Shown: positions 18,961 through 35,497, numbered from the stretch's first letter. The stretch is 48,982 nucleotides of DNA from Gammaproteobacteria bacterium (GCA_026710875.1 JAPOQE010000039.1:1-48982); one strand, 5' to 3'. Notes: a model not told the origin generated them from the sequence alone. Translations and numbers: made by a program.

Positions 18961-19040
18961 GAAGACAAATTTGTGGGCTAGCGCCTATCGTCGGCAAAAG
19001 TCTGGGCTCCGTATGGACACAGGCCACCCGTGACCATGCA

Positions 19041-20204
19041 CTAGTCTGCCGGCTCAAGACGCAGCAGCATACCGTTACGCGCATCGGTAAGCAGGTAAAT
19101 GAGGCCATCCGGACCCTGACGCACATCCCGGACCCGCCGCCCCCAGTCCTCAAGCAACCGTTCTTCGGCCACTACCCTGTCCCTCTCGATTCCAAGACGG
19201 GCCAGCAGTCTCCCGGAAAGCGCTCCTACGAACAGGCTTCCGCGCCAGTTCGGGAAGGCATCTCCATCATAAACCATCAGTCCGGAAGGTGAGATCGAGG
19301 GCACCCAGTAATGCAGCGGCTGGGTCATGCCCGCCTTGTGTGTACCCTCGCCAATCTTGAAACCGGAGTAGCTCAGGCCATACGTGATTACCGGCCAGCC
19401 AAAGTTCGCCCCGGGCTCGACGCGGTTCAGTTCGTCCCCGCCCCTGGGACCGTGCTCAACGAGATAGAGCTGTCCGCTCATCGGGTCCTTTGCCATGCCC
19501 TGCGGATTGCGGTTGCCATGGGTGTATATCTCGGGTCTGGCATTGGACCGGGCAACGAACGGATTGTTCTCCGGAACGCGTCCGTCCTCATGCAGGCGGA
19601 TCACGGAGCCCGCCGGGTCATCCAGGGCCTGCGCCCGGTCCGGGTCACCGCGCTCACCCGTAGTGATGAAAAGGTAACCATCGGAAAACACCAGGCGGGA
19701 ACCGAAATGACGGCTGCCTCGTGTGTGTGGCAATGCCACATAGAGCTCCTCGACGTCCTCGAGACGGTTGCCGACCAGTCGGCCGCGTGCGACCGCGGTG
19801 GCACCTCCTCCCTTGCCCGGGCTTGCATACGACAGATAGACCAGTCGGTTCTCGTCGAAGCGCGGATGGATTACGACATCGAGCAGGCCTCCCTGGCCGC
19901 TTGCATAGACCTGTGGAACCCCGGCCACTGGCTCCGGATCAAGCCTGCCTTGTACGATAAGTCGCAGGCGTCCCGGGCGCTCGGTGACCAGCATGGAGCC
20001 TTTCGGCAAGAAGGCCAGACTCCAGGGATGCTCAAGTCCATCGAGGATCTTGACCAGTCGGTAACGATGGTCCAGCGAATCAAACTCCCCGAGCAGTTCG
20101 CCGGCATCTGCCGAGCGACTCGCACCGAGAACAACCAATGCTGCAACAATCACTGCGAAAAGCCGGCAGGCGGTTCCCTCTATTGCGTCATGAATGTGCT
20201 TCAT
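19041..20204 (-). CDS. PQQ-dependent sugar dehydrogenase (YliI/GSDH beta-propeller)
   Basis: LEHPWSLAFLP, GQGGLLDV, HFGSRL, GNRNPQG, EHGPRGGDELN, G.NFGWP; signal peptide; start uncertain (20204 or 20258). Confidence 0.92.
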   Translation of the reverse strand: MKHIHDAIEGTACRLFAVIVAALVVLGASRSADAGELLGEFDSLDHRYRLVKILDGLEHPWSLAFLPKGSMLVTERPGRLRLIVQGRLDPEPVAGVPQVYASGQGGLLDVVIHPRFDENRLVYLSYASPGKGGGATAVARGRLVGNRLEDVEELYVALPHTRGSRHFGSRLVFSDGYLFITTGERGDPDRAQALDDPAGSVIRLHEDGRVPENNPFVARSNARPEIYTHGNRNPQGMAKDPMSGQLYLVEHGPRGGDELNRVEPGANFGWPVITYGLSYSGFKIGEGTHKAGMTQPLHYWVPSISPSGLMVYDGDAFPNWRGSLFVGALSGRLLARLGIERDRVVAEERLLEDWGRRVRDVRQGPDGLIYLLTDARNGMLLRLEPAD

Positions 20205-20524
20205 ACCCAAATCCGTATTTTGCAAGCCCTCTATAGAGCGTATGTTCCTGCGGCCCACCCCGATAGCTTATACAATGAGTGTAGCAATCACACACGGCCA
20301 TTTACCATAGAATCTGGCATCAGAATCGTGGGCCTCGTAACAAAAGTAACACCCGAATAACGTACTATTGAGACCAATCGTACTACCAGGGAACCGGGAG
20401 TACAGGGGAATTGTCAAAATTCACTTGAACTAAAGTAAAAAGACCCCATTATTGCAGAGAGTGTAAAGTGCTTGATTCCGGCAATGTAAGGCAAGCGAAA
20501 GAAGATAGGAGAACATCTAAGTTT

Positions 20525-20755
20525 ATGGGTAAAAAAAGTGAATTAACGGCTCGAGTGGACAGGATGAACCTAGTGATGGCTGAGGTACGAAACGATCTCA
20601 AGTCGTTGCAAGAAGAGATGACGTACACGCTTCAAAAGTTTGGCTTGCCTGTAGAAGAACATACCAAGTGTGTTCACAGCATAGGTAAAATGCGTAAAAA
20701 ACTCAGTGGCGCAATGACTAAGACAGACGATTCCAAGAAGAAACAAGAATCGTAG
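20525..20755 (+). CDS. Small hypothetical protein (76 aa, helical)
   Basis: ORF track; AGGAG upstream of ATG 20525 (spacing somewhat long); no recognisable motif. Confidence 0.5.
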   Translation: MGKKSELTARVDRMNLVMAEVRNDLKSLQEEMTYTLQKFGLPVEEHTKCVHSIGKMRKKLSGAMTKTDDSKKKQES

Positions 20756-21021
20756 TCCTTAAATTCAACAGGCATGACATCACACCGCTGGATGCGCATA
20801 GTCAGCATGTCACACACCACATCCTAGATTAGCAGCGGCCAGGGGAAGAAATTCCAACTGACGCTGTTTCATCCGTCCCATTCGGGAGCCTGCTAATCTC
20901 GTCTTTGCCAAGCTCGCCGCAGGCAGTTGTTTTATTTGAAATCCAAGTATCTCACTGCGAGTCATTCCAAATGCAGCTTGCAAGCCAAATAACTCATCAG
21001 CAGTGTCAACAATTGTCACTT

Positions 21022-21399
21022 TTATTCTGCGCAACCTCTTCCCAGAATAGTCAGTCTGATAAGATCATCCACGCTCCTTACATGACCTAGCTTATGCACA
21101 CCCATTTCAATTAAACCCACAGTTACTTCGCGGATATCTCCTTCAATTTGATTATCAAGCATAAATTTTTTTATCAGAAGTTCATATGTTGCAGCTAAAT
21201 CTCCAAACAAGACTTCTCTACTTAACTCTTGTCCATTATTGTCCTCTACGCCTGAATTACTAATCCCAGTTTCTTTGCTGAGACTGATAGAAATGGCAAT
21301 TCTAGAAAGTATATTGGGTGTAACGCCAGTATTAGCCTTAATAGCTCTAAACCGATCACTAGCCTTCTTGGATAGCTGTATCCTTGATGGTAGCGTCAT
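21022..21399 (-). CDS. dndE: DNA sulfur modification protein DndE
   Basis: RIQLSKKASDRF...TGVTPNILSRIAISISL...ELSREVLFGD matches the DndE pattern; ATGA overlap with the dndD stop. Confidence 0.88.
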   Translation of the reverse strand: MTLPSRIQLSKKASDRFRAIKANTGVTPNILSRIAISISLSKETGISNSGVEDNNGQELSREVLFGDLAATYELLIKKFMLDNQIEGDIREVTVGLIEMGVHKLGHVRSVDDLIRLTILGRGCAE

Positions 21400-23393
21400 G
21401 CTACACCTGATTGCTTCCAAAAATAACCTTGCTTGACAAAACTGGATTTCTTCTCAGGACTGTATACCACTTCAAATGCGTGGGAGATATTGGGTGATAG
21501 TTCAGAAAAAAAAGTTTTGTCAATTTCTGTATCAGTCGATAGCAAAATTACCTGATGGCTTGCTATGGGAAAATAATATTTTGCTAACTTTTTTCTATGT
21601 TTAGAATCAAGGCGGCCCAAAGGTGTGTCGATCATTACAGGTAAATTTCTTCCGCTTGCTTTTGCCAAAGAATTTAGCATAGCTATAGCATAAATCTGAC
21701 GCTCCCCAGCCGACATTTCATCTATAGAAACCTCATCTTCATTTCCTGCATCAATTAGCTTGATATCGAATGAATGAAGGTCAATCTGTGCCGTGAGATG
21801 TAAGTCTTCTTTTCGGGCAAGAACTCGATACGAGTTTTCAAATATCTCTTTAAGATAATCTACTTTGTATTTTTTCATTTTTTCTGAAAACTCTTTTAAT
21901 AATATTTGAGTAGTCGCTGCATATTCAATTTGTCGATCTAATTTACTACTAGAGTCTATTTGTTCCGTTATATTTTCTAGTTTTTTAACAATCATCAATG
22001 CTGACTTTAGAAAGGCTCTTCTTTTTTCAAAGTGTTTCTCAATTTTTCCATATTGTTCGGCTTTTTTTGTTTGTAATCTGGATAGTTTAGAAAGAGTTTC
22101 TCGTAGCAGTTCATCCTCCGGGGCGCGGGCAAAATTGTCTTCTAAATGCTGTTGCTTCTCACGAAGCTGTTGAAGTTTAGCCAACGTATCTGTAGCGGAA
22201 TGCTGTTCTGCAACACAAAATTCCAAGTCCTTTTGCACTTGGCTTCGCACTGCTGGGCCCACATTAAATACGCTTTCTAACGTATTTTGGGGGTTCTGGA
22301 GAGAATGTTGCTTTCTGCGTAGAATCTCCAAGACTGTTGCCGAGCCATGCAAATTTTCCAGCTTTACTTCTGATATCAAGTCTTCAGCCAGTTGCAATGC
22401 TCCTTTTCTCTGCAGATTCTTACTGTAAGACTGCTTTTCTTGTTCTAGACTTTTAAGCAATGATTTTAAAGGATCAATTGCCAAAGCCAGGGTGAGTCTG
22501 CTAGACAACAGTTCACGTGCATTTTGTTCTAAATGATCTATTTTGTATTTTGTATCAATTGAATCAATTGATGATTTTTGACGCGATCTTGCCCAAGCCC
22601 CTCCCATTTCCATGAGTGTAGCTTCAGTTCGTTGAATATTTACTTCTAGTTCTGCTAATTCACATCTACAGTTATCTATCTCAGTTTGCTCAGAATAAGC
22701 TAATTCCCGAAATTGGCTTAGCTCTTTTTCCATGACTTTTTGATGCCTAGCCAAGTCATCAGGTGCTGTAGTGAGCCGCCTTTTCCTCTTGTAAAGAGCT
22801 AAGTCCGCTGAAAGTATATTTATTATGTCTAGCCCAATTAGCTTCTGGATTGAATTTGATAGTTCAAGATTGCTATTCTCAGCCGCTAAGTCAGAAACCT
22901 TTTCACCATCAAAGAAAAACAACTCTGACACACCTAGAGGTACTAATTCGTTCAAGAAGGCTTGTGCTTGGTCTTGGCTTAACCCGCCAATTTCCTTACC
23001 GTCTTTGCTAATAAAAAGATCTTCAAGAACTCCTTCCCCTTTCCTTTCCCAACGTCTCGTTACTTGATATTCGCTAATCTCCCCTAGATGTGCGTATTCA
23101 AATGTGACTTCGACACTTGCACCACCAGCCGGTACGATGCTGTCTTGTGTTTTGTGAATGGATTTCAATAAGAAGTTTGAATATACCTTTTTAGAGGTGC
23201 CCCTCCCTAGAGATTGACGCCCATGAAATGCTAACCGGATTGCCAACAATATGCTGGTCTTCCCAGCACCATTAAGACCTCCGAACAGTATGATTGGTCT
23301 TGTATGCCCGTACTTAACTCCAGGTTTCAGTGTGATTTGATGAGTGCCTCGGAAAATACGAAAATCTGTCATCCGTAGAACAGACAATATCAT
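21396..23393 (-). CDS. dndD: DNA sulfur modification protein DndD (SMC-like ATPase)
   Basis: GGLNGAGKTS Walker A, LFFFDGE, coiled coil, MSAGERQ signature, IDTPLGRLDSKHR, QVILLSTDTEI. Confidence 0.95.
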   Translation of the reverse strand: MILSVLRMTDFRIFRGTHQITLKPGVKYGHTRPIILFGGLNGAGKTSILLAIRLAFHGRQSLGRGTSKKVYSNFLLKSIHKTQDSIVPAGGASVEVTFEYAHLGEISEYQVTRRWERKGEGVLEDLFISKDGKEIGGLSQDQAQAFLNELVPLGVSELFFFDGEKVSDLAAENSNLELSNSIQKLIGLDIINILSADLALYKRKRRLTTAPDDLARHQKVMEKELSQFRELAYSEQTEIDNCRCELAELEVNIQRTEATLMEMGGAWARSRQKSSIDSIDTKYKIDHLEQNARELLSSRLTLALAIDPLKSLLKSLEQEKQSYSKNLQRKGALQLAEDLISEVKLENLHGSATVLEILRRKQHSLQNPQNTLESVFNVGPAVRSQVQKDLEFCVAEQHSATDTLAKLQQLREKQQHLEDNFARAPEDELLRETLSKLSRLQTKKAEQYGKIEKHFEKRRAFLKSALMIVKKLENITEQIDSSSKLDRQIEYAATTQILLKEFSEKMKKYKVDYLKEIFENSYRVLARKEDLHLTAQIDLHSFDIKLIDAGNEDEVSIDEMSAGERQIYAIAMLNSLAKASGRNLPVMIDTPLGRLDSKHRKKLAKYYFPIASHQVILLSTDTEIDKTFFSELSPNISHAFEVVYSPEKKSSFVKQGYFWKQSGVA

Positions 23394-24925
23394 TGGTTTC
23401 TACCAATAAATTCAGATTCTTGTTCTCCTAGCATTTTCATAATTTCATCTCGATCTTTTTCCCAGTCTGAGTACCTGGCTTTATCTCGATGATGCTGGTT
23501 TTCTATTTTCTCTAGGCTTTCCCAATCTTGGCTAAGCAATGTGTCCAACTGTTTTTGAATTCCCCGTCTGTTGCCTGATCCTATAGCCGCAACCTCCAAA
23601 TCAATTAGCTTCTGAACAAGCGGAGCCGGAATTGAGTACTCCTTGCTCAAAGACTCAACGAGTTCTATATCAAATTCAGAGAAAGTACCAAAATCATCTT
23701 TAACCCACTGAATTGGGTCATCTGGATATACCTCCTTATAAATTTTAGGAAGTGAATCTTTCCAATCTGGCTCGTTTGGGTCACTCAGCCACTGTTGACG
23801 TATTTCATGCAGTTCATCTCTTTGGATTAATTCAATATCCTGTCCGTTTTGCCTAAGTTTTTTTTCAATTTTGAGCAATCTCCTGAGCCAAGTCTTGCGC
23901 TGTTTCATCCAGTATGGACCAGGTATTACTTTCGAAATGGTGGATGAGTCATCATTAATTTTTTTACTCGCAGAAAATGTCACTTTCCCACTGCGGCGCT
24001 TGTAATTTCGATACTTGCGTTTATTTTCAGGTATGGTGGATTTAGCTAATTCATTCCTAAAATCTAGAAGTGGCTGCATCCAAGTCTCACCTGACTCAAT
24101 TAGCCCGTGCATGGCCTTATCCTCATTTACAACTGTGCATGTCCAGCAACCAAACCGAGAATTACCACAGGACGGTGTAGATGTATCTATGACCAGTGGG
24201 CATTCACCCTGGTTAGAACCTTTATAAAGTTCAAAAAGTTTTTTATTTGTGTCCCCCCACGGAGTAGGTGCACCAAGTAGGTACTCCCAAACTTCATCGG
24301 CAGACCAATCTTCTATTGGCATATAGGTATATGCATTCGGTAGTGATTTATGCCTTCCTAGTAAAGAATTTTTTATCCGATGCCGTGCAATGACCTGTGC
24401 GCGTGTTGCACTCTCCTGGCGGCGAGAACCAAGCACAATTATCGCCTCACCAAACTCAGCAACCTTGTCAAGAATAAACGTATTTACTGGATCAATTTTC
24501 ATCCTTTCCGTACACCATCTAAAACTTTTAGTTGGTGCTGGGTATCCCCTGCCAAGCAAATTGGCCCAGAAAGTTTGACTTTTTTTAGGATGAACTTGAT
24601 TAAGGCTGACTTTAAAAGAATTTTCTCCAGCTGCTGACGCAACAGATTTCAGAACATGTTTAATTTGATCAACGACAACAGGAGTTTCAACCAATGTGTC
24701 AGAAGATACGACATAGAGAGTTTTATTCCGTTTATCTTCGCTTAGGGTCACAATAGATTCATAAACGAGAGAAAGCACAGCAGTTGAGTCTTTACCTCCA
24801 CTGAACCCGATAACCCACGGCCTTTCATCCGCGGTGTACATGGTTTGAATCTCTTGGATAAGATTAGAGCAGGGCCGGCCTGCAAATTTTGTATTTCTTA
24901 CTAATTCACTGTGAGTCTTGTACAT
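23390..24925 (-). CDS. dndC: DNA phosphorothioation protein DndC (PAPS reductase family, Fe-S)
   Basis: PWVIGFSGGKDS, SDTLVETP, GRGYPAP..FRWCTERMKI, ECPLVID...CGNSRFGCWTCTVV. Confidence 0.96.
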   Translation of the reverse strand: MYKTHSELVRNTKFAGRPCSNLIQEIQTMYTADERPWVIGFSGGKDSTAVLSLVYESIVTLSEDKRNKTLYVVSSDTLVETPVVVDQIKHVLKSVASAAGENSFKVSLNQVHPKKSQTFWANLLGRGYPAPTKSFRWCTERMKIDPVNTFILDKVAEFGEAIIVLGSRRQESATRAQVIARHRIKNSLLGRHKSLPNAYTYMPIEDWSADEVWEYLLGAPTPWGDTNKKLFELYKGSNQGECPLVIDTSTPSCGNSRFGCWTCTVVNEDKAMHGLIESGETWMQPLLDFRNELAKSTIPENKRKYRNYKRRSGKVTFSASKKINDDSSTISKVIPGPYWMKQRKTWLRRLLKIEKKLRQNGQDIELIQRDELHEIRQQWLSDPNEPDWKDSLPKIYKEVYPDDPIQWVKDDFGTFSEFDIELVESLSKEYSIPAPLVQKLIDLEVAAIGSGNRRGIQKQLDTLLSQDWESLEKIENQHHRDKARYSDWEKDRDEIMKMLGEQESEFIGRNQ

Positions 24926-24930
24926 TGGGA

Positions 24931-26007
24931 CTAGGTAAACTCCTGCTCAATTTGCTTATCCTCATCACGTAAAGGCATATTCAGTTCTTTTTTAATGTAT
25001 ATGGCTGTGCGAGCAACATTGTATGTTGCCTTGCTTATCCTGCCGTTGTTCATAGCTCGGCCTTCCCAGGCAGGATTTATCCTAGACCAATCTATACTTT
25101 TCAGCTTCTTCAATTTTGCTTTCCAGGACCTCTCAGGAAGTAACAATAGTTCTGACCCTACAATTCCTATCGCCTGGAGTGTTACACCGTGGGCGTGTAC
25201 GAAGGATTCTCTAAGTCCGCTGGGAGCTATTTCTCGGCTGAGGACTTTTTGCCAATCAGGCATGTTCGCAGCCACATCATTCCAAAATTTAACTGCGAGA
25301 TCCTTATCCCCCTTGCTTATTGTATCCTTGCCGCTTTTTTTCAAAAGTGCTTTGGTTGCATTCTTGATAGCACTAAGTGTGAATAGCTTAAGACTACGAT
25401 TTGAAATACTGGATTTCTCCATTTCAGTAGTGCGGCTAAAAACATGAACATTCTTTTGTACATGTCGTCCTAGCTCAGAGATTTGGTCCCGCAAATCATA
25501 CAATGTACTTAGTGAGTCAGAAGGTCGTACCGCGTGCTTGTTTAAATCAGCAAACATTTGTTGAGCCCGTGCTAGGCCCTCATCAATGAAAAACATTACA
25601 GGGATGCTATCGTGGCCCAACTCAGGGTTTTCTTTGATTGCCGCCTCAATTGCTTTTCGGCGATGCTGGCCATCATTAATTATGATCTGCGCGTCCATTG
25701 GAACAGTGAGTGTTCCTATATTTGCACCTAAACCTATGTCTTCTGATGGTGCAAAAGACACTTTAGAATTTATAGATGCAGTAACGCAAGATAGTGTGTA
25801 ATCCTGTGGGTTATCAAGAAGATAGGAAGCAATTTCTGGAACCCGATTGAGATTTAGCGTACGTTGGGCACGCAGCTCTGGAGGTACTTCTTCTTCATCA
25901 AATTTAAATAGGGTAGGCACTACTCGCATCGGACACATCGCTATATAGCATGGACGACCCGACTGAATACCGCGCACGGCAGGAAATGAATGAAGATAAG
26001 TACTCAT
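24931..26007 (-). CDS. dndB: DNA sulfur modification regulator DndB
   Basis: FPAVRGIQ, RAQRTLN..RVPEIA.Y, INDGQHRR (DGQHR), QQMFADLN; first gene of dndBCDE. Confidence 0.95.
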   Translation of the reverse strand: MSTYLHSFPAVRGIQSGRPCYIAMCPMRVVPTLFKFDEEEVPPELRAQRTLNLNRVPEIASYLLDNPQDYTLSCVTASINSKVSFAPSEDIGLGANIGTLTVPMDAQIIINDGQHRRKAIEAAIKENPELGHDSIPVMFFIDEGLARAQQMFADLNKHAVRPSDSLSTLYDLRDQISELGRHVQKNVHVFSRTTEMEKSSISNRSLKLFTLSAIKNATKALLKKSGKDTISKGDKDLAVKFWNDVAANMPDWQKVLSREIAPSGLRESFVHAHGVTLQAIGIVGSELLLLPERSWKAKLKKLKSIDWSRINPAWEGRAMNNGRISKATYNVARTAIYIKKELNMPLRDEDKQIEQEFT

Positions 26008-26019
26008 GAGGCATTGCGA

Positions 26020-26061
26020 AAGTTAAATTAAAATTTATTGGAAGTCAAATTAAAGTTTATT
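26020..26061. promoter_or_regulatory. Tandem 20-bp direct repeat upstream of dndB (candidate DndB operator)
   Basis: AAGTTAAATTAAAATTTATT (26020-26039) and AAGTCAAATTAAAGTTTATT (26042-26061), 18/20 identical, 22-bp period; core TCAAATTAAAGT recurs at 26188-26199. Confidence 0.55.
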
Positions 26062-26622
26062 TTAACATACATGCTATTGGATAATACGCTATAGTCTCAA
26101 AAATAAAGAATACGCTGCCAACCCAAAGAGTAAAGTATGTTTATTTTCGAGATTACTTTGCAATAACGACCTGAATTTGGCATGCCCTCAAATTAAAGTC
26201 AGCTTTTGATGGATAACATTTTGGACCTGTAAAGGCTCAAGCATTCCCAAGAGGCTGCAGCAAAAGAATTCTACGTATAACCAGTATGAGAATGACTGGA
26301 TCGACGAACCTCAAGAGTATTCTAATCCGACATTCTTGAATACTACTGGAGATTTCTAAGCATGCTTAGTAGAGGTTGGCAACAACATCAATCTGCAAAA
26401 TACCAGCAATGTTTGTTAACCGTAACACGTGATTCACACTGTACACTTCAATCTCCTACGCAACATCGTGTATTCCAGACATAGTAAATATCATTTCGTT
26501 CATTTTCTTATAACTTAGCAAACAGATATTAGTGACCGTGATGTGAGAGTAGTTCTGACAATTTCGGTTGCGAAATATGTCTCAAACTAGCAATGTTTCT
26601 TTGCTACATGTTGGAGGATTTA

Positions 26623-27513
26623 ATGTCATATCTGCAATCATTATTAGAAATATTCGATAATCTTAAAATGGGAAAAAGGAAGGGCCAACATGCACCGCAT
26701 AAGCCTCTATTGATTTTGTACGCACTTAGTGAACTCCAAAGAGGTCAAAAAACATTTGCCTATAGAGATGTAGATCCTGCACTTACGAGTCTTCTCAAGA
26801 CCTTTGGACCGCAGCGAGTGTCGCATCACTCTGAATACCCATTTTGGAGACTGCAGAACGATGGAATTTGGATCGTAACTGCTGATGCACCTCTAGAATC
26901 GCGCAAAAGTAATTCAGACGCCAAGAAATCTGAATTGATACAGAAAAACGCTATAGGAGCATTTTCTCCTAGTGCAATGAAAACTCTTATGGCACATCCA
27001 CAAAACATAAGAACTGTAGCAAAATGGCTATTAGAAGCAAATTTCCCAGAATCATTGCATCATGACATTCTTGATGCAGTTGGGCTAAATTTGGAAGTAG
27101 CGGGAAATCAGCAAAGGCGCAGCCCAGATTTTCGTCGAAGAGTATTAAGGGCATACGAATCCCGATGTTGCGTGTGTGGTTATGACATGCGACTAGGAGA
27201 CAATTCTGCTGGACTCGAAGCAGCACATATTATGTGGCATCAAGTCGGCGGACCAGACAAAGAGTCTAATGGCCTTGCATTGTGTGTGCTACACCATAAG
27301 GCATTTGACCTCGGTGCGTTTGCTATTGATGATGATGGACAAACCGTTGTTTGTAGCCAAGAACTATCTGGTACTACTAGAACGGAATGGTTGCTTGCTT
27401 TTCACGGTACGCGTTTAAAGCGCCCACAGAGTGTATGTTATTTCCCAGAAAGAAAGTTCTTGGAGTGGCACCGCGTTACAATATTCAAGGGCCCTGGGAG
27501 AGACTTTAAATAG
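26623..27513 (+). CDS. SBD-HNH endonuclease (phosphorothioate-dependent restriction type)
   Basis: N-terminal APHKPLLIL and EYPFWRLQNDGIW motifs typical of sulfur-binding domains; C-terminal CCVCG...LEAAHI...NGLALCVLHHKAFD HNH; GGAGG SD before ATG 26623. Confidence 0.82.
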   Translation: MSYLQSLLEIFDNLKMGKRKGQHAPHKPLLILYALSELQRGQKTFAYRDVDPALTSLLKTFGPQRVSHHSEYPFWRLQNDGIWIVTADAPLESRKSNSDAKKSELIQKNAIGAFSPSAMKTLMAHPQNIRTVAKWLLEANFPESLHHDILDAVGLNLEVAGNQQRRSPDFRRRVLRAYESRCCVCGYDMRLGDNSAGLEAAHIMWHQVGGPDKESNGLALCVLHHKAFDLGAFAIDDDGQTVVCSQELSGTTRTEWLLAFHGTRLKRPQSVCYFPERKFLEWHRVTIFKGPGRDFK

Positions 27514-27721
27514 TGATGCTATCTAGGAAGTATAAAAATGCAAGTAAGATGAAAAATTCAAACTCCTCTAAAACTTGATCCGCTTTGCACAAAACCAACT
27601 ACGATTAGTCCGCTTAACTCCCCATGCATGGACTAGGTATATTACATTTCTAACAAGAATTACCCGCAAATACCTTCCGCAATTGGATTGGGGTGGGCTC
27701 TGATTTAAAAACATTTAAAAG

Positions 27722-28003
27722 TCATAACAACTGTTCAAACTTTTTCAAACATTTAATTACCGTAAAGGCATCTCTTTTGCTATTTATAGAAAATGATTGC
27801 GCAACTTTCCAAGTATTGTTGCGCCTCTGCCAACGATAAAATTTTAGGAATAGCTTTTCTGTCTTGGGGTTTTCGATCAAAAGGATCGCAGTCCACCACG
27901 AACCAGTTCGACTTATTGTGAGTGCTTCTTTTATGTGGTTAGCATAGTAATCAGAGACTGGAAACCCATCGAACTCATCTATTCCACCCACATTCTCCGA
28001 CAT
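27722..28003 (-). CDS. Small hypothetical protein, possibly PC4-like nucleic-acid-binding fold
   Basis: 93 aa; beta-strand pattern with aromatics (WWTAILLI, FLKFYRWQRR, WKVAQSFSI) and a C-terminal helix; fold is inference. Confidence 0.7.
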   Translation of the reverse strand: MSENVGGIDEFDGFPVSDYYANHIKEALTISRTGSWWTAILLIENPKTEKLFLKFYRWQRRNNTWKVAQSFSINSKRDAFTVIKCLKKFEQLL

Positions 28004-28146
28004 TGTTTGTCCCTGAAAGTTGCCTTACGTCCCAGCAATTATCCTGATGCAGTTTCATCCTCGACCTAGTAACTAGGTGGCAAACTATGTACTTGAGAGA
28101 ACTAGCAACTCATCCCAGGATTGAATGCTAAAGTATAAGGCTAACA

Positions 28147-29184
28147 CTACCCCCACTTATGGACACGGGCATTGCTGCTAGGTCTACATTTAATACCTAA
28201 TTCGTTTGAAAGCACATTAGCAAGAATTCGACCACGATCATTTCTGCCGCGGCAATTATCAGTAACTACATACTGAGCTCCAGATTTCTCCACATACTCC
28301 AGTGTTCCAGCAAAGTCTGCATGAGCTGATAATCCACATCTATATGCTTGATCTCCGTACTGCATAACAGGTTGTTCTGCACGATACTTACTAAGCTTAA
28401 CAGTTGAACCTTCGACAATTCCATCAACTCGACCACCTTCAGATAGTTGCCAACACCGGACATATCGACCATTTGCAAGTGCATTATGGCCATCTTTCGT
28501 ATCAACACAAATTGGCTCATCGATGGGCCACCCATATTTCTGGTGGACTTTAATACTGGCACAAAGCTTACGATTCGCTATTATCGGAACCGAGTCCTGA
28601 ATATCCGCAGTACTCAAAATCATCAATGCTCTTTCAATAACTGCAGTGTGAGCCATGAGATGAATTGGGCCGTTCCCTAGAAGTTTCTTGCTCAATTCGA
28701 CAAATTTTTCTTCTACTTCTGTTTGCGAATAATTGTATCCAGAGCCTGGTTTTCCATATGTTGCATCAACTACCAATGCATCAACTTTGATCACCTTGTC
28801 CAATGGCCATGAAAAGTCCCCGGAGTAGCCTAATCGTGTACCATCATCCAGCACGACAAGCACTTGTGATGCTCCTAACATATGCCCCGCAGCAACTATA
28901 GAAATAGTTGAGTTTCCATAATGAAATTGATCCCCAGCTGAAAGCTCACGAATATTCGTACGAAATTCAAAATCTGGATGATCAAACGTTAATAACTCTC
29001 GGACACATGGGCTCATTACAAGCACCCTGCCCTTACTAGTTTCGAAATCAGCCATATGATCACTGTGGATATGAGTTTGCACGCGCACATCTCTGTTGCA
29101 GTGGAAACCATCACAGGTCACGTCTGGCCCAAGTATTACCGTACCTGAGCGGATAACATCAATCTCAAAATCGTTTTCAACCAT
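28147..29184 (-). CDS. MBL-fold hydrolase, beta-CASP nuclease type
   Basis: THIHSDH (HxHxDH), AGHMLGA, YSGDF, VVDATYG (motif A), SAHADF (motif B). Confidence 0.85.
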   Translation of the reverse strand: MVENDFEIDVIRSGTVILGPDVTCDGFHCNRDVRVQTHIHSDHMADFETSKGRVLVMSPCVRELLTFDHPDFEFRTNIRELSAGDQFHYGNSTISIVAAGHMLGASQVLVVLDDGTRLGYSGDFSWPLDKVIKVDALVVDATYGKPGSGYNYSQTEVEEKFVELSKKLLGNGPIHLMAHTAVIERALMILSTADIQDSVPIIANRKLCASIKVHQKYGWPIDEPICVDTKDGHNALANGRYVRCWQLSEGGRVDGIVEGSTVKLSKYRAEQPVMQYGDQAYRCGLSAHADFAGTLEYVEKSGAQYVVTDNCRGRNDRGRILANVLSNELGIKCRPSSNARVHKWG

Positions 29185-29905
29185 TATCTGTTATCTTCAT
29201 TGTCAATAGTCTGCTAACCCTTTCCTCGAATTCAAGATCCGAAGCTACTACTGCGCCAACATGCTTACTTCCAATAACGGCAAAGTTCTTTTCGCCGAGC
29301 TTGGCAGAAAATTCTCCTAAATTTGGGTACAAATCTTTCACGATCTTCTTAATTAGCTGGTCCCGCTCTGACTGTCGCATTCTTTTTAAATTCTTGCTAA
29401 TTGAATTTCGATTAAGTTCTTCTTCAGTTAGTTTTCCAAGCACTACATGACGTACTTGCGTACGAACACGCCTTTGCACAACGTCTTTGATGCAATCTGA
29501 CAGTGATCGGTTGGATCGTTCACGCAACTGGCGCATGGATACAACTTCCTTTTTTGTAAGATGGTTTTCAATTATTGCGCTGATCATTTTTGGATGATTA
29601 CTCTGCGGCATCTTCGCAAGCTCAACTGCAACTGAAAAACCAATGCTACTGCTGGTAGACTCTCTCCATTCGACCAAATATTGAATTTCTTCTGACAGCT
29701 TAAGTAGCTGCAAAAACCGAGAAACCATTGTTGCATCATTGAATCCAAATGCCTTGGCAATTTCTGTTTTCGATGCTCCTGCTTTCTCAGCTTTGTGTAT
29801 ATTCCAAGCAACTTCAACTGGGGTTAAAGGCCGTTGTTTTCGATGTGAACCAACAGACAAAAACGTCTGATCTATTTCGCTCGAGTCAAGACCTAAAAGT
29901 CTCAT
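29177..29905 (-). CDS. ParB/Spo0J HTH-domain protein lacking the N-terminal CTPase domain
   Basis: RPLTPVEVA...SKTEIAKAFG...MVSRFLQLLKLSEEIQYLVE...IGFSVAVELAKM follows the ParB central DNA-binding pattern; no GxxRR motif. Confidence 0.7.
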   Translation of the reverse strand: MRLLGLDSSEIDQTFLSVGSHRKQRPLTPVEVAWNIHKAEKAGASKTEIAKAFGFNDATMVSRFLQLLKLSEEIQYLVEWRESTSSSIGFSVAVELAKMPQSNHPKMISAIIENHLTKKEVVSMRQLRERSNRSLSDCIKDVVQRRVRTQVRHVVLGKLTEEELNRNSISKNLKRMRQSERDQLIKKIVKDLYPNLGEFSAKLGEKNFAVIGSKHVGAVVASDLEFEERVSRLLTMKITDNG

Positions 29906-29907
29906 GT

Positions 29908-30729
29908 TTAATTGTTCTCAACCAATCCCATAGAGTCTAAGCTAGACTCGAGCATGTCTTGGGCCGCAACGCTGGGATCAGCATCTTGCCCTTCAGCATA
30001 CTTTCTTAAAGCATCCCCATATGAAGGGCCCATAGTAAATGAAATCTTAAGCCTAGTATCTGGCTTCTTTGCACTTTCAACTATCTTGCTGACCTCAGCT
30101 GTAGGGTTACTCTTGTTAACTTCCAAAATGCGTTTTCTTAACTCATCGTCTGATTCCTGCAACACATCAACAAGTTCCTCAGCCCTTTCAGGGCTATAGA
30201 CTCCATCCACAGTTGCAGCATCTTGTGATTTAATTGCGAGGTCTACAGGCAACGCATTGTTGTCAACAAGTGACTTTAAATTTGGCTCGAGCCTGCTATA
30301 ACGAACATACTTTCTAACCATATCGTACGGCAGTCGAGTCTTTTCCCACACCGCTTTCAAAGTGCCGTAACGCAAAAAGAGCTTTTCACAAAGATCAATC
30401 AAGTCCGTTCTCGTCATGTCTAACTGATGGACATTCTCATTGCCAGATATTGCCAATCCTTCATCTTCAGATAGTACTCGGTCAATAACACCAGCTTTAA
30501 TCTTTTGTTTACCAAGCTTCTTGTGTGCAAGGAGTCGTCGCTGCCCACAAACAACTTCCCATTTCGCTGAGTCATATTCAGAAATGGAAACTACGATAGG
30601 ATGCAATAATCCGAATTCCTGAATACTTGCAGCCAGTGTTTCTATTTCCTCTCCTGTATTTGATTTTCGAACTTGGAATCTATCAATTACCAATTTTTCA
30701 ATAGGTATATCCTCATATCTTTCAATCAT
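29908..30729 (-). CDS. ParB N-terminal (CTPase) domain protein
   Basis: IPIEKL...QVRK...LAASIQEFGLLHPIVV...VVCGQRRLLA (Arg patch)...ENVHQ; C-terminus resembles a ribbon-helix-helix; SD AGGAGG. Confidence 0.88.
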   Translation of the reverse strand: MIERYEDIPIEKLVIDRFQVRKSNTGEEIETLAASIQEFGLLHPIVVSISEYDSAKWEVVCGQRRLLAHKKLGKQKIKAGVIDRVLSEDEGLAISGNENVHQLDMTRTDLIDLCEKLFLRYGTLKAVWEKTRLPYDMVRKYVRYSRLEPNLKSLVDNNALPVDLAIKSQDAATVDGVYSPERAEELVDVLQESDDELRKRILEVNKSNPTAEVSKIVESAKKPDTRLKISFTMGPSYGDALRKYAEGQDADPSVAAQDMLESSLDSMGLVENN

Positions 30730-30776
30730 TACCTGCCTCCTATAATTCCGAATATGAAAATGAAATTGTGGAAAAG

Positions 30777-32105
30777 TTAACTAAGAATTTGCTGCAAAGT
30801 TTTAAGTGACTCTTTTGTGCTAACTTTAGTCGCAGCAGAGTCAATATATTCCTTAAATAATTGACGCTTTGACTTCAATACTTCGTCGATCCTCTCCTCA
30901 ATTGAATTACGTACTAAATATTTAATAACATGCAGTGGATGTATTCGCCCAAATCTGTGAGCTCGATGTACGGCCTGATTTTCAACCGACGGATTCCACC
31001 AACGGTCAAACATCACTACTGTATCTGCTTCTTTCAAGTTGAGGCCAACACCACCTGCTTTTAATGAAATGAGAAGTATATGTGAATCCACAGATTCTCG
31101 AAATCGCTTGATAGATTCGTGCCTAACCTTTGCATCCATTGCTCCAGTGTAGAGATCGTGGGAATAATCTCCCAACTGCTGACTTAACCATTTCAAAGTT
31201 TCAACAAACTGTGAAAAAACAATAAGCTTGCTGTTTGAAGCAAATGTATTTTCAATTACAGTTTTCAATGCATCCAACTTAACTGACTCTCCACTTTTGA
31301 AATCAAAATTACATACCTTTTTGAGTTTTACAATTAGCTCTAAAAGATGCGCACTTTCGTGCTTTTCGCGCTGCCATGTTGGGGTACCTCTGGCTTCCCA
31401 GATTTCATGATAGGAGACCCATTGTTTACCAGTGAGGGTGAGATGTACTTCTTGCTCTATAATTGGCGGGAGTTCAGGTATTACATCTTTTTTGATTCTG
31501 CGGAGAAAGTACGGTGCCATTAAATTCTGCATCTCGTCAGATGACATTTCAGGCAGCAATATCCCTGGCTTTACAAAGGAAAATATTGAAACTATATCTT
31601 CTGTAACGTTTTCAAGAGGTGTGCCAGATAGTGCCCAAGACCTTCTTCTTGGCAAAGTAGAACATGCGATACTTGTCGATGAGGAAGGAGATTTGATTCG
31701 TTGCGCTTCGTCCAGAACTACGACCTCAAACTTTTCAGCATAGTCAAGAAGGTGACTGTCAATTCGGACCTGATCATATGTAGCAATTAGTACAGGAAAC
31801 GGTAACAAATAGCTTGCCTCACGATTTTTTTGATTGCCTTGGACCATTCTTACTGAAAGCTGCGGGGCCCATACTGCAAATTCTTCTTGCCAATTCCTAG
31901 ATAATGCCTCAGGAACTACTACTAGTACCCTAGCCCCAGAGTTATTGGCAACAACTGTACGAATTGCAACAATTGTCTGGACCGTCTTTCCGAGACCCAT
32001 TTCATCAGCTAATAGTGCACTATTAGATCTAACAAGAAAATTGATGCCCTCCTCCTGATAGGCTCTTATCTCGTGAGGCATAATATATTGGGATGACCTA
32101 TTCAT
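30777..32105 (-). CDS. SNF2-family DEAx-box ATPase (core only)
   Basis: LADEMGLGKT, VVLDEAQRIK, LSGTPLEN, LRRIK, VFSQF, SLKAGGVGLNL, DRWWNPSVENQAVHRAHRFG. Confidence 0.93.
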   Translation of the reverse strand: MNRSSQYIMPHEIRAYQEEGINFLVRSNSALLADEMGLGKTVQTIVAIRTVVANNSGARVLVVVPEALSRNWQEEFAVWAPQLSVRMVQGNQKNREASYLLPFPVLIATYDQVRIDSHLLDYAEKFEVVVLDEAQRIKSPSSSTSIACSTLPRRRSWALSGTPLENVTEDIVSIFSFVKPGILLPEMSSDEMQNLMAPYFLRRIKKDVIPELPPIIEQEVHLTLTGKQWVSYHEIWEARGTPTWQREKHESAHLLELIVKLKKVCNFDFKSGESVKLDALKTVIENTFASNSKLIVFSQFVETLKWLSQQLGDYSHDLYTGAMDAKVRHESIKRFRESVDSHILLISLKAGGVGLNLKEADTVVMFDRWWNPSVENQAVHRAHRFGRIHPLHVIKYLVRNSIEERIDEVLKSKRQLFKEYIDSAATKVSTKESLKTLQQILS

Positions 32106-32617
32106 AGAAATATATAGCCAAGCAAAAAATTTTAGTAATTAAGGGACAATCCGAATAAATTACATAACCGATTTAAGATGCGCTTTAGCACGCATGCAGG
32201 GGGTGGTGTGTTTTAGCTTAGGATAGACCGAGCCTGGAGGGCGACTGGTTAAACTTTTCTTTACTACACGAGACATAACCGAAACCAATGATAATCGTAA
32301 ATGTTGAGCACAATTTAAAAGTCAAGATTTTGATCTAATGTCACAAATCCCCGCTATCCTTCTCTGTTCACTCAGACTCTGTTCAGGCAAAATTATTTTC
32401 TACATTAGGACACTATAGCTTGGTAATGACCACTACATCTGTACGGTTCCACATTAATTACCATATAACAAGTTCCTTGTTTCCCTCACAGACCAAGAGA
32501 CTTGGTCAATTTAAAATCTAGGCTAAAACAAAATTGAAGCTTCATGGTAGTTCACCATAACCTGATTACAACACCTCAAAGACCTCTTTTTATGAGAGGA
32601 TTGCGAACAAAAATCGA

Positions 32618-33397
32618 ATGAGCAGAATAGTCTTTCTTGGGGTTGTGCTGATTACTGTATGCACTATCACGTTTGGTGTCTCAGGAAACACCAAAAATCA
32701 ATTTATCAAAAAGTCAAAATCCGGCATCTGCCACTGCCCGGGCGGGCAATACTATGCTCGCACCTCAAAATTCACGGCTTTCGATTCCATTGAGGCCTGT
32801 CTTGCCAGCGGGGGCCGACACCCCAAGCGTGGACAGGGACAATGTTCAGCATCAGGCAAGCAAGGTCCAGCGGCCGCCAAAACACTGCCCCTGCCCCCTG
32901 CCACAAAGCCTAGGTCAAAACCCTATGATAGAAGCGTGTTCGGCGGATGGGCAGATACGGATGGCGACTGCCAGAATACGCGCCATAAGCGCCTGATCGA
33001 CTTGTCCGGGACGCCTGTCCACCTTTCCGACAACGGCTGCCTGGTCATTCAAGGGCATTGGTACGATCCGTATACCGGAAAAGTCCATCGTACTGCCCGG
33101 GACATGCACATCGATCACCTGGTCCCACTTTTCTATGCCTGGAAAAGGGGTGCTGCACACTGGGAGCCTGCGAAACAGCGAAGCTTCATGAATGATCCGG
33201 CAAACCTTCTCGCTATCGAGGCTGGTGTAAACCAGGACAAGGGTGCAAACGGTCCGCTTGCATGGCTTCCACCACGCATCGAGTTTCATTGCGAGTACCT
33301 GTTGAGATTTTCACGCGTGACAACCCGTTACGGGTTGCAGCACACACCCACCGAGCGCGTAGCCCTGGAACAGTTGACTGCGCAGAAATGTGACTAA
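32618..33397 (+). CDS. Secreted HNH-family nuclease (DUF1524-like) with small Cys/His N-terminal domain
   Basis: Signal peptide; KKSKSGICHC...YY.RT..F..F.SIEACLASGGR.PK module; WADTDGDCQNTR, WYDPYTG, IDHLVPL, NQDKG..GP..WLP. Confidence 0.8.
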   Translation: MSRIVFLGVVLITVCTITFGVSGNTKNQFIKKSKSGICHCPGGQYYARTSKFTAFDSIEACLASGGRHPKRGQGQCSASGKQGPAAAKTLPLPPATKPRSKPYDRSVFGGWADTDGDCQNTRHKRLIDLSGTPVHLSDNGCLVIQGHWYDPYTGKVHRTARDMHIDHLVPLFYAWKRGAAHWEPAKQRSFMNDPANLLAIEAGVNQDKGANGPLAWLPPRIEFHCEYLLRFSRVTTRYGLQHTPTERVALEQLTAQKCD

Positions 33398-33586
33398 ACC
33401 CCGGGAAACTGCCCTGTAGGCTTGGCAAGTCCAGGACTCGCAAAAACAGTCAAAAAATGAACGATAACCTACAAATTGCCGGTTAGGATTGTCGTAAGAT
33501 GGGTACTGCGGTATTTTTATAGCCCATAATCTATCGAAGCATAGGGCGATGGACTTATACCCTGCCGGGTTCATGCTGACTAGAAT

Positions 33587-35497
33587 GTGCAAGTAAACAT
33601 GCCAAGACATAGCCTGAAATTCCTGACATCCTGGGCCCCGCCCAACTCCTTCATGCCCTCCGGGATCTGTGTGGTCCTTGCAGGATGGCTGGCCCTGGCC
33701 GGTCTGTTTCCGGTTCAGTTGGCAGCCGTTGAGTTGTCAGGCAGCGAGCCCGGAATCTCGGGATATTTTGATACTACCGTCTCGGTAGGGGCTGCAATTC
33801 GCACCCAGGGGCGCAAAGACAACCTGATTGCCGTATCCAATGGTGGCTCGGCCTGGTCCATCAACGAAGATAACGGGAATCTCAACTACGATACGGGCGA
33901 TTTCGTCTCGGCCAACACTAAAATCACTCATGAACTCGAGTTGAGTCGTAATAATCTGGGCATGTTTGTACGTGCCTTGTACTTTTACGATTACGCCATT
34001 GCAGACGAACATACCGACCGTACACGCCTGTCTCGAAGTGCCAAAAACGATGCCGGTTACGACTTCAAGCTGCTGGATGCATACATCAATGGCCAGTTCG
34101 ACCTTGGAGGCTCCCCTCTGATGATCCGTGCGGGCGATCAGGTGATCCATTGGGGGGAAAGCGTCTTTATCCGTAACGGGCTCAACTCGATCAATCCGGT
34201 GGAAAGCGCCAAGGTTCGCGTGGCAGGCGCCGAAATCCGTGATGTGCTTGAGCCGATCACCGCGGCCAACCTGCGTCTCGGTCTCACCGACAACCTGTTT
34301 CTTGAAAGCTTCTATCAGCTGCGCTCGGCGCACTCTGAACTCGAGCCCGCCGGTACATTCTTCTCAACCAGTGATGCGGCAAGCCCCGGCGGCAACACTG
34401 TACATTTCGGATTTGGTGTCCCCGGCAGGGCGGATGATAATGACAACACTGATGACCCTGGCTGCACCAGCATCTGCTCGAGGGTACCCCGTGCCAGTGA
34501 TCGGGACGCTGACGATGATGGCCAGTTCGGTCTAGCACTTCGCTACTTTTCCCCGGCCCTTAATGATGCCGAACTCGGCTTTTATTACGCACGCATCCAC
34601 AGCCGTCTGCCACTGGTCTCGGTTCGTGCGGGTCAACTGGATGCGGTTCATGCCCCCACGGGCTATGTCGGATCCATCGGCTATTTCCGGGAATTCCCCG
34701 AAGATATCGATCTCATGGGTATCAGTATCAACACCGAACTCGGGAACAGCGGATTTGCGTTCCAGGGTGAGGTTTCCTACCGCAAGGATCAGCCATTGCA
34801 AATTGATTCTGCGGAGCTTTTCTTTTCCTCGCTCTCACCGCTTCGGCTTGTACAAGTGCCAGACGGCTTGCCTCCAGAACATACGGCTGTGCTGACGCAG
34901 CTGCAGCAGGCGGGAGGCCTGTTCAGTTTGAGCCAAACTGGTCCTTTGGCACCAGGGGAGGAGTTGCGTGGTTTCCGTCGCAAGAATGTGCTGCAGGGCT
35001 CGATGGCCCTTACCAAGGTGCTGGGACCGATTGCCATGATTGGGTCCAGCCAGAGCGTATTCCTGCTTGAAGCCGGCTTCACCCGGGTGCAGGGCCTGGA
35101 AAAGAGGTCGGAGTTGCGCTATGAGGCTCCCGGTACTTGGACCAGCGCCAATCCGGTGTTCACACTCGCACAATTACAACCGGCAACCCAGGATGGCGGC
35201 TTTGCCGACTCCTTCTCCTGGGGATATCGCGCACTGCTGCGTACAATATACAACAATGCCTTTGGCCCGGTGAGCCTCACACCACAGATCGCATTTGCGC
35301 ATGATGTCAACGGCACAACTCCAACACCGATCAGTAATTTTGTTGAGGACCGAAAAACTGTCACGCTGTCAGTCAATGCCAGTTATCTGCATACCTGGCA
35401 GGCGGGATTGTCCTATACCAATTCATTCGGAGGTGGCGCGGCCAACCTGCTCAATGATCGTGACTTCCTCGCTTTCACACTCAAATATTCCTTCTGA
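33587..35497 (+). CDS. DUF1302 family outer-membrane protein
   Basis: DTTVSVGA, DNGNLNYD, LLDAYI, QVIHWGES, GQFGLALRY, C-terminal DRDFLAFTLKYSF; start uncertain. Confidence 0.88.
   Translation: MQVNMPRHSLKFLTSWAPPNSFMPSGICVVLAGWLALAGLFPVQLAAVELSGSEPGISGYFDTTVSVGAAIRTQGRKDNLIAVSNGGSAWSINEDNGNLNYDTGDFVSANTKITHELELSRNNLGMFVRALYFYDYAIADEHTDRTRLSRSAKNDAGYDFKLLDAYINGQFDLGGSPLMIRAGDQVIHWGESVFIRNGLNSINPVESAKVRVAGAEIRDVLEPITAANLRLGLTDNLFLESFYQLRSAHSELEPAGTFFSTSDAASPGGNTVHFGFGVPGRADDNDNTDDPGCTSICSRVPRASDRDADDDGQFGLALRYFSPALNDAELGFYYARIHSRLPLVSVRAGQLDAVHAPTGYVGSIGYFREFPEDIDLMGISINTELGNSGFAFQGEVSYRKDQPLQIDSAELFFSSLSPLRLVQVPDGLPPEHTAVLTQLQQAGGLFSLSQTGPLAPGEELRGFRRKNVLQGSMALTKVLGPIAMIGSSQSVFLLEAGFTRVQGLEKRSELRYEAPGTWTSANPVFTLAQLQPATQDGGFADSFSWGYRALLRTIYNNAFGPVSLTPQIAFAHDVNGTTPTPISNFVEDRKTVTLSVNASYLHTWQAGLSYTNSFGGGAANLLNDRDFLAFTLKYSF

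Follow-up and report, generated by a model that had tools for sequence, protein, structure and literature searches.

The window, by which we mean the whole stretch of 48,982 nucleotides (nt) analyzed here, is the entire contig C39 (JAPOQE010000039.1) of a gammaproteobacterial sponge-symbiont genome (GCA_026710875.1), and it carries, back-to-back with the genes dndBCDE of a DNA phosphorothioate (PT) writer, the gene of a nuclease of the class that reads PT. This gene lies at 26623..27513 (+), divergent from dndB, and its product is an intact two-domain endonuclease of the EcoWI/SprMcrA kind, in which a sulfur-binding domain (SBD) is joined to an HNH domain without an SRA domain, and for which cleavage of DNA is predicted. 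Enzymes of the ScoMcrA type are reported to cut PT-DNA and to be incompatible with a cognate dnd system (PMC6224610; PMC7461809), and the initial annotation of the locus, correct on that background, had concluded that co-residence of reader and writer looked self-destructive. This wording proved too strong, since dnd genes adjoin the nuclease gene in 11/80 homologue loci and the pairing recurs in metagenome islands; SBD-HNH/dnd adjacency is therefore not a one-off. The reading that we favor, and to which we give an even chance, is that of a type IV enzyme of the ordinary PT-dependent sort, retained alongside a writer whose marks it spares.

The family and fold identity of the nuclease is far beyond chance. 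The protein matches the NCBIfam model NF045808 ('phosphorothioated DNA-binding restriction endonuclease') with 335.5 bits (cut-off 180) over profile positions 4–284 of 284, and its C-terminal part matches Pfam HNH_2 (E 9e-11) and the HNH domain of TagI (6ghs; E 2.6e-6). When the N-terminal half alone was compared with solved SBDs using phmmer, matches to SprMcrA (7cc9; E 1e-5) and ScoMcrA (5zmo; E 3e-4) were obtained, together with a weak one to the Hga SBD (8h0l; E 0.068). An AlphaFold prediction based on 34 homologues, with a mean predicted local distance difference test (pLDDT) of 79.2, was then compared with the PDB using Foldseek, and the 11 best matches are SBD structures of SprMcrA or ScoMcrA only: the template modeling (TM) score on target is 0.79 for the ScoMcrA SBD (5zmo; root-mean-square deviation 2.7 over 153 columns) and 0.70–0.77 for the SprMcrA SBD (7ccd, 7ccj, 7cc9). 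The Hga SBD reaches 0.71, and the HNH enzymes VcaM4I and TagI come next after the SBD structures in the ranking. The SBD and the intact HNH domain that had been read by eye from the gene divergent from dndB are thus confirmed both by hidden Markov model (HMM) and by structure prediction.

The SBD has a winged-helix fold and occupies residues ~1–158 (26623..27096, +; numbering of the 296-aa form). The N-terminal HKP...YPFWRL signature noted earlier is present as H26-K27-P28 within APHKPLL (26698..26706, +), which aligns with H116-R117 of the sulfur cavity of ScoMcrA (phmmer, 5zmo), and as Y72-P73-F74-W75-R76-L77 (26836..26853, +), which aligns with Y164-P165-F-W-A168-L of the same enzyme, R76 standing at the position of A168. 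The cavity pairs H26-K27 and Y72-P73 are invariant or nearly so in the 34-sequence alignment, in which H26, K27, P73 and F74 show no substitution at all, and 79 of 81 homologues retain the HK pair. A third element, the S98-D99-A100-K101-K102 loop (26914..26928, +), aligns with the S187-R-G-R-R191 loop of ScoMcrA, which contacts bases (PMC6224610); its position was counted in the phmmer alignment with H116 and Y164 as anchors. At 26815-26826 (R65-H68), residues R65, V66 and H68 lie opposite the acidic patch E156, D157 and D160 in loop 34 of ScoMcrA. The HNH (beta-beta-alpha-Me) domain (27166..27330, +) displays C182xxC185, A-A-H202, N216 and C221xxH224H225; these elements are invariant in the 34-sequence alignment and, apart from minor Cys variants, are kept in 81/81 homologues. 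Pocket and catalytic residues are intact in the window protein and in all 12 dnd-linked proteins. No SRA domain was found, as evidenced by the lack of a Pfam match at E <= 0.01 and by a model that passes straight from the SBD to the HNH domain, and a length of 296 aa leaves no room for an SRA/SAD domain between the two. An alternative in-frame ATG at 26593 would give a 306-aa open reading frame (ORF; 26593-27513, +); the ATG at 26623 is the likely true start because a GGAGGA box precedes it by 5 nt, the gene call in the database has 296 aa and the homologues begin there.

The writer next to the nuclease gene looks functional, judging from its gene content, since DndB, DndC and DndD have their full length and score above cut-off, and the genome encodes IscS at another site. 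DndB, a DGQHR protein and ParB-superfamily regulator of the PT level (24931..26007, -), scores 482.3 bits with TIGR03233 (cut-off 328), 444.7 bits with Pfam DndB and 541 bits with the PADLOC DndB model. The PAPS-reductase-like sulfurtransferase DndC (23390..24925, -; TIGR03183 559.8 bits, cut-off 290.4) shows the motifs SGGKDS and CGxSRFGCWxC in its translation, and the SMC-like ABC ATPase DndD (21396..23393, -) matches TIGR03185 over profile positions 1-650 of 650 (471.2 bits, cut-off 245.85). DndE (21022..21420, -) is recognized by Pfam DndE (67.7 bits, cut-off 25) and PADLOC (64.4 bits) and falls under the cut-off of TIGR03184 (56.4 vs 71.85 bits). The island lacks dndA; IscS, which can stand in for DndA (PMC7461809), is encoded on another contig of this genome, C143 (750.6 bits, cut-off 643.2). 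The genome as a whole (1.79 Mb, 171 contigs, 90% complete) contains one DndC and one SBD-HNH protein only.

To count how often reader and writer are neighbors, as the initial annotation had proposed, we took from a nuclease family of 4312 proteins (E <= 1e-10) the best 80 of 298 relatives in one-genome-per-species records and retained flanks of at most 10 kb, the loci being drawn mostly from metagenome bins and short contigs. HMM-confirmed dnd genes were present in 11 of the 80 loci, or about 14% (L003, L004, L005, L019, L021, L047, L050, L052, L058, L063 and L068), and in 5 of the 33 with both flanks 9 kb or longer. The layouts differ: the divergent dndB arrangement of the window is found in L019, the nuclease gene follows dndE on the same strand after 234 bp in L005, it comes after dnd_assoc_4 in L021 and between dptFGH and dndA-E in L047, and it converges on dndB in L052, L058, L063 and L068. 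The linked members are scattered over five or more distinct places in the protein tree, with eight or more state changes needed; the clade of the window protein (window, L003, L004 and L005) is linked throughout. At the genome level, DndC above cut-off was detected in 12/79 homologue-bearing genomes, beside the nuclease gene in eight of these and elsewhere in four. A sample of 400 genomes of the window's phylum contained DndC in 15 and a full SBD-HNH protein in four, none of the four with DndC; the comparison of 12/79 with 15/400 (Fisher p 4e-4) is a rough one, with unmatched taxa and non-independent genomes. Among 50 of the 67 DndC-negative homologue-bearing genomes that were tested for SspD, 46 lacked this protein as well and four encoded it distant from the nuclease gene.

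Several of these loci have features of their own. Two loci of Planctomycetaceae (L052:3312-5144 and L063:3093-5156) carry tandem diverged SBD-HNH paralogues that converge on dndB-dndA, one scoring ~365 bits and the other 114-126 bits with NF045808. The closest homologue locus, from a metagenome-assembled genome of Arenicellales (L003:2659-9581), combines SBD-HNH with an atypical dnd set: DndC is short (370 bits, profile 4-364), the DndD-like ATPase stays under its cut-off, and a CedB/HerA-like ATPase and a DGQHR protein of 425 aa are also present; a second, canonical DndC is encoded 310 kb off in the same genome. A TIGR04096 protein ('DNA phosphorothioation-associated putative methyltransferase') stands beside SBD-HNH in L004:4563-6017, L050:7038-9410 and L052:2563-3198.

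We favor the type IV reading because most of the homologue-bearing genomes have no sulfur writer; in such genomes the enzyme must spare unmodified DNA, and it is thus most simply taken to be PT-activated. Cleavage of PT-DNA and restriction of dnd+ plasmids are both known from characterized enzymes of the family (PMC7461809; PMC6224610). Further work on ScoMcrA showed that it restricts dnd clusters that write GpsGCC and spares those that write GAAC/GTTC (PMC7470945), which is an experimental precedent for the coexistence of a compatible reader and writer. Of the explanations offered in the initial annotation, all of which are already in print in some form (PMC7461809; PMC10853773), it is consequently the first, a nuclease that reads a PT context different from the one written by the resident Dnd proteins, that we prefer. 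By this mechanism, the SBD would clamp the Rp phosphorothioate in the cavity formed by H26/K27 and Y72/P73, neighboring bases in the major groove would be read by the S98-D-A-K-K102 loop, and the HNH domain would then cleave the DNA nearby. The nuclease would act as a modification-dependent (type IV) arm against incoming DNA whose PT context or density is foreign to the resident Dnd, and unmarked DNA would be handled by the writer and by a cassette of genes described below. Mismatched readers and writers would be mutually lethal and only pre-matched, compatible pairs would spread; such lethality would select for tight linkage and could account both for the joint travel of the two modules and for the loop type that they share.

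A number of observations weigh against this reading. Linkage in 11 of 80 loci with at least eight changes on the tree is beyond what a plain defense island would lead one to expect, and where a genome has DndC at all, dnd genes adjoin the nuclease gene in 8/12 cases. Nuclease gene and writer look like one transcription unit in L005, with its gap of 234 bp, and in the metagenome locus L097, where dndD is followed by an ORF of 126 aa, placed as dndE would be, and, 16 bp later, by the SBD-HNH gene, which converges on the cassette. The substitutions E156R/D157R broaden the PT contexts recognized by ScoMcrA, and E156R adds GpsAAC and GpsATC (PMC7470945); from the alignment, R65 at the E156 position of the window protein hints at broad rather than narrow recognition. 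Lastly, where ScoMcrA has its base-contact loop, 24/81 sequences carry a motif, [STNKQH]-D-[AGP]-[KRLP]-[KR]-S, among them 12/12 dnd-adjacent proteins (window included), and the proteins without it are dnd-adjacent in 0/57 cases; it is missing from the four in which nuclease and dnd genes are co-resident and unlinked. A cognate reader-writer pair predicts this loop pattern equally well. The near-operonic layouts, the usual adjacency of a co-resident dnd cluster and the basic residue at the E156 position likewise either speak against a compatible type IV enzyme or fit a cognate reader equally.

The same observations thus lead to a second explanation, namely that the SBD reads the marks of the adjacent dndBCDE and that its binding governs the HNH domain, the nuclease being an integral effector or sensor in the manner of DndI and SspE. 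The HNH domain could be released or silenced on self DNA, or nicking could be licensed only during defense. We regard this explanation as possible, though doubtful. The recurrent and tight linkage, with its same-strand layouts, the enrichment of DndC in homologue-bearing genomes and the distribution of the loop motif are all in its favor. PT readers are paired with cognate writers in IscS-DndBCDE-DndI (PMC11662687) and SspABCD-SspE (PMC9646914), and nucleases with the architecture wHTH(SBD)+SAD+HNH have been proposed as alternative restriction components in dnd loci (PMC10853773). A further point in favor is that the restriction proteins DptF, DptG and DptH were not found in the 90%-complete genome with TIGR03238, TIGR03236 and TIGR03237, models that were also silent in control genomes, so that the sensitivity of the search is unproven, although the same models did detect DptFGH in locus L047. 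On the other side, proteins 45-65% identical to the nuclease occur in genomes without a PT writer, where a nuclease that needs a PT self mark would be lethal, and on this explanation the subgroup would need to have inverted the logic of the family. The loop motif was chosen after the adjacent set had been seen, and with phylogenetic control only five independent pairs were available (2.6 the same way, 0 opposite; p 0.25); for these reasons we treat the association of loop and adjacency as a lead, not a result. The presence of a separate candidate effector next to the nuclease gene also argues against an integral role.

This candidate effector is the cassette operon at 27722-32105 (-), which converges on the nuclease gene. 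Its first gene encodes a minimal SNF2 helicase/translocase (30777..32105, -; Pfam SNF2-rel_dom 179.5 bits, Helicase_C 78.2 bits) and is followed by genes for a ParB N-terminal-domain protein (29908..30729, -; Pfam ParB_N 51.5 bits), a ParB paralogue with only the helix-turn-helix (HTH) part (29177..29905, -; Pfam HTH_ParB E 1.8e-5) and a putative nuclease of metallo-beta-lactamase (MBL) fold, beta-CASP-like (28147..29184, -). The last of these scores 26.5 bits with Lactamase_B_2, just under the cut-off of 27, shows weak NCBIfam matches to ligase-associated exonuclease and beta-CASP families and belongs to a family of 410 proteins. A small conserved ORF of 93 aa (27722..28003, -), without a family match, closes the operon. 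The SNF2-ParB-ParB-MBL cassette was present in 0/80 of the SBD-HNH homologue loci. A second set of loci (L083-L162), the best 80 of 223 MBL relatives in metagenome contigs, showed that the gene order is kept wherever the contig reaches, with 49, 57, 68 and 80 matches to the four genes, respectively, and that 22 of the 80 have a homologue of the 93-aa ORF next after the MBL gene. Genes of the dnd cluster were detected in 34/80 cassette loci, and in 27/37 of those that extend at least 3 kb past the cassette. In the 12 loci that display both the cassette and a downstream dndB, the gap between them is occupied by an SBD-HNH gene in three, by a nuclease with HARE-HTH and Mrr_cat domains in six (L091, L113, L115, L121, L126 and L131) and by dndA in one, and is empty in two. 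The SBD-HNH protein in this slot is intact in L111 (327 bits); in L128:4597-5480 and L129:7382-8265 it is frameshifted near residue 64-68, with an intact cassette and dndBCD around it, the frameshift being identical in these contigs of related samples. The nuclease is therefore dispensable, and the window represents one version of a three-part island that recurs and whose reader-nuclease is optional and exchangeable.

Two identities were considered for the cassette and rejected. A system of the Pbe type would consist of the HKD-helicase PbeA, the small PbeB, the CxC ABC ATPase PbeC and the DndE-like PbeD (PMC10853773); in the window the PADLOC PbeC models match DndD alone, and the MBL and ParB-HTH proteins have no PADLOC match. 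DndFGH (DptFGH) was set aside since the DptF/G/H models, of unproven sensitivity in that search, are without a match in the 90%-complete genome. Neither PHROGs nor PADLOC gave a system-level name for the cassette or the 93-aa ORF. Literature searches, supplementary tables aside, yielded no paper combining phosphorothioation with SNF2, ParB and metallo-beta-lactamase, nor one combining dndBCDE with SNF2; the main text of PMC10853773 contains neither 'lactamase' nor 'beta-CASP' and names SNF2 only with DndH. The cassette, a candidate restriction/effector partner of Dnd, is thus apparently undescribed in print as a dnd partner.

The slot bears on the role of the nuclease in several ways. With a cassette here and DptFGH in L047, the nuclease is not needed as a restriction arm, which weakens the third of the earlier proposals, that it is a single-gene replacement for DndFGH; the other half of that proposal, a reader licensed or inhibited by PT, is still a possible one. 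In keeping with our preferred reading of a type IV enzyme that spares the resident marks, the HARE-HTH-Mrr nuclease in the same slot would, by analogy, resemble the type IV enzymes lodged in restriction-modification loci; the alternation of the two suits a type IV arm, as does the presence of separate effector modules alongside the SBD-HNH gene. A more ambitious arrangement, of which we are skeptical, is a three-part PT immune system in which dndBCDE writes, the cassette is the main effector and the exchangeable slot holds a reader of the system's own marks. Within it, the SBD-HNH subgroup with the S/T-D-A-K-K-type loop might be the cognate reader, PT switching the HNH domain off on self DNA or licensing it during attack, and this part we put forward just as tentatively. 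Were the arrangement true, it would invert the logic of the characterized stand-alone enzymes.

The frameshifted copies also raise the question of whether the nuclease is simply a passenger, with an enzyme that is weak or indifferent to PT, or a Dnd cluster that leaves its DNA unmodified, so that there would be nothing to reconcile. Lutz et al. (2020) predicted that SBD-HNH genes avoid dnd, and Bsp48385I, the only dnd-linked enzyme assayed, retained a low residual activity regardless of PT (PMC7461809). We nevertheless consider a passenger quite unlikely: the pocket and catalytic residues are all intact in the window and in the 12 linked proteins, the ORFs of writer and nuclease are full-length, the linkage is maintained across at least five lineages, and the sequence is identical in contigs of four sponge-metagenome runs. 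The stretch is present in six sponge-metagenome DNA runs, none of the six being an RNA run, and contigs of four of them, short and of low depth, show no variants, indels or joints in 19000-34500.

Between dndB and the nuclease gene lies a divergent intergenic region of 615 bp (26008..26622). It contains, at 26020-26061 and 13 nt upstream of the dndB start, two tandem copies of a 20-nt direct repeat, AAGTYAAATTAAARTTTATT, and a third copy of 12 nt at 26188-26199, 143 nt further on; these repeats may possibly form an operator in a shared control region. A promoter scan of 25900-28200 was not above background (4 sites vs 5.3 +/- 2.1 in shuffles), nor was a terminator scan of the same interval (2 vs 1.9 +/- 1.3).

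A common control region with repeats is what one would look for if the nuclease were a suicide (abortive-infection) switch, akin to the repressed switch on the host's own marks that was the second of the earlier proposals. The nuclease would cut PT sites of the host, and would be restrained by low expression or by sparse, partial modification until infection raised its level or the PT density, for instance through loss of control by DndB. DndB is a negative regulator of the PT level (PMC7461809), fewer than 15-20% of GAAC/GTTC sites are reported to be modified in Dnd+ genomes (PMC9521924), EcoWI cleaves better with two sites (PMC7461809), and suicide modes have been named as possible (PMC10853773). 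We think such a switch improbable and find that the proposal fits poorly: in other loci the gene lies directly behind dndE, as in the same-strand layouts of L097 and L005, or on the strand of the cassette, and an arrangement divergent from dndB is thus not a conserved one. Nor was a regulator site identified, and promoter-like sites stayed at background.

The genes discussed above are enclosed in a low-GC island at 20400..33000 (GC 0.36-0.47 vs 0.53-0.63 in the flanks), a defense island of ~12.5 kb. None of the ORFs encodes an integrase, no direct repeat of 15 nt or more flanks the island, and its borders carry no tRNA gene, the nearest tRNA genes lying outside. At the right edge, where the GC content climbs back, a 259-aa protein is encoded (32618-33397, +) that combines a hydrophobic N-terminal segment with a GmrSD_C domain (DUF1524-type HNH; E 8e-11).

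The paradox of a PT writer that coexists with a PT-dependent nuclease, and the linkage of the two, are already in print as computational observations (PMC7461809; PMC10853773). It is an acknowledged puzzle, for which PMC7461809 expects rare or accidental coexistence and PMC10853773 a genuine restriction partner; the latter reports wHTH(SBD)+SAD+HNH in dnd loci of 698 taxa, 197 of them with DndFGH, alongside HARE-HTH+REase, and proposes both as restriction components. Our literature searches found no published experiment on a naturally linked SBD-HNH/dnd pair. The locus described here is a compact and fully intact natural pair that can be cloned as one fragment of ~11 kb; it could discriminate between type IV enzymes of compatible specificity and readers of their own marks, and could provide PT-mapping tools with SBDs that have new sequence specificities.

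Among the characterized enzymes, EcoWI, Ksp11411I, Bsp305I, Mae9806I and Sau43800I (PMC7461809) resemble the window protein in having an SBD followed by an HNH domain without SRA, in belonging to NF045808 and in their HK and YP residues; unlike the window gene, which lies inside a dnd island, the genes of EcoWI-type enzymes were characterized as stand-alone, and these enzymes recognize GpsAAC/GpsTTC. SprMcrA (7CC9, 7CCD, 7CCJ; PMC7470945), likewise SBD-HNH without SRA, is the best match of the window SBD in both sequence and fold and shares a basic residue at the loop-34 position, R65 in the window. The identity between the two SBDs is only ~21%, the base-reading motif of SprMcrA is HGD whereas the window loop is S-D-A-K-K, and SprMcrA has the catalytic variant H-N-R with low activity (PMC7461809) in contrast to H-N-H in the window protein. 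ScoMcrA (SBD-SRA-HNH; 5ZMM, 5ZMO; PMC6224610), with an SBD fold that agrees at a TM score of 0.79 and with H116/R117 and Y164/P165 aligned to H26/K27 and Y72/P73, differs in its SRA domain and in three sets of residues, A168 being replaced by R76, SRGRR by SDAKK and E156/D157 by R65/V66.

As to the setting of the gene, Bsp48385I is encoded, as in the window, by an SBD-HNH gene in a dnd locus, and L047 has the same type of layout, dptFGH - SBD-HNH - dndA-E (PMC7461809). The partner module is DndFGH in the Bsp48385I-type loci and the SNF2-ParB-ParB-MBL cassette in the window, and dnd adjacency was published for <3.6% of the predicted PT-dependent enzymes (PMC7461809) as compared with 11/80 here. 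The wHTH(SBD)+SAD+HNH and HARE-HTH+REase nucleases of Dnd loci (PMC10853773) belong to the same class of reader-nucleases, and both kinds alternate in one slot in the islands examined here; the form reported there has three domains and lies mostly downstream of the modification genes, whereas the window form has two domains and is upstream of, and divergent from, dndB. DndI (PMC11662687) and SspE (PMC9646914) are PT-sensing nucleases, as is predicted for the window protein, and live together with their writers. Their folds are unrelated to it, and they are NTPase-coupled nickases in which PT sensing spares self or activates defense, whereas the window protein has no NTPase domain; their coexistence with cognate writers demonstrates that the co-residence of a reader and a writer is not self-destructive in principle.

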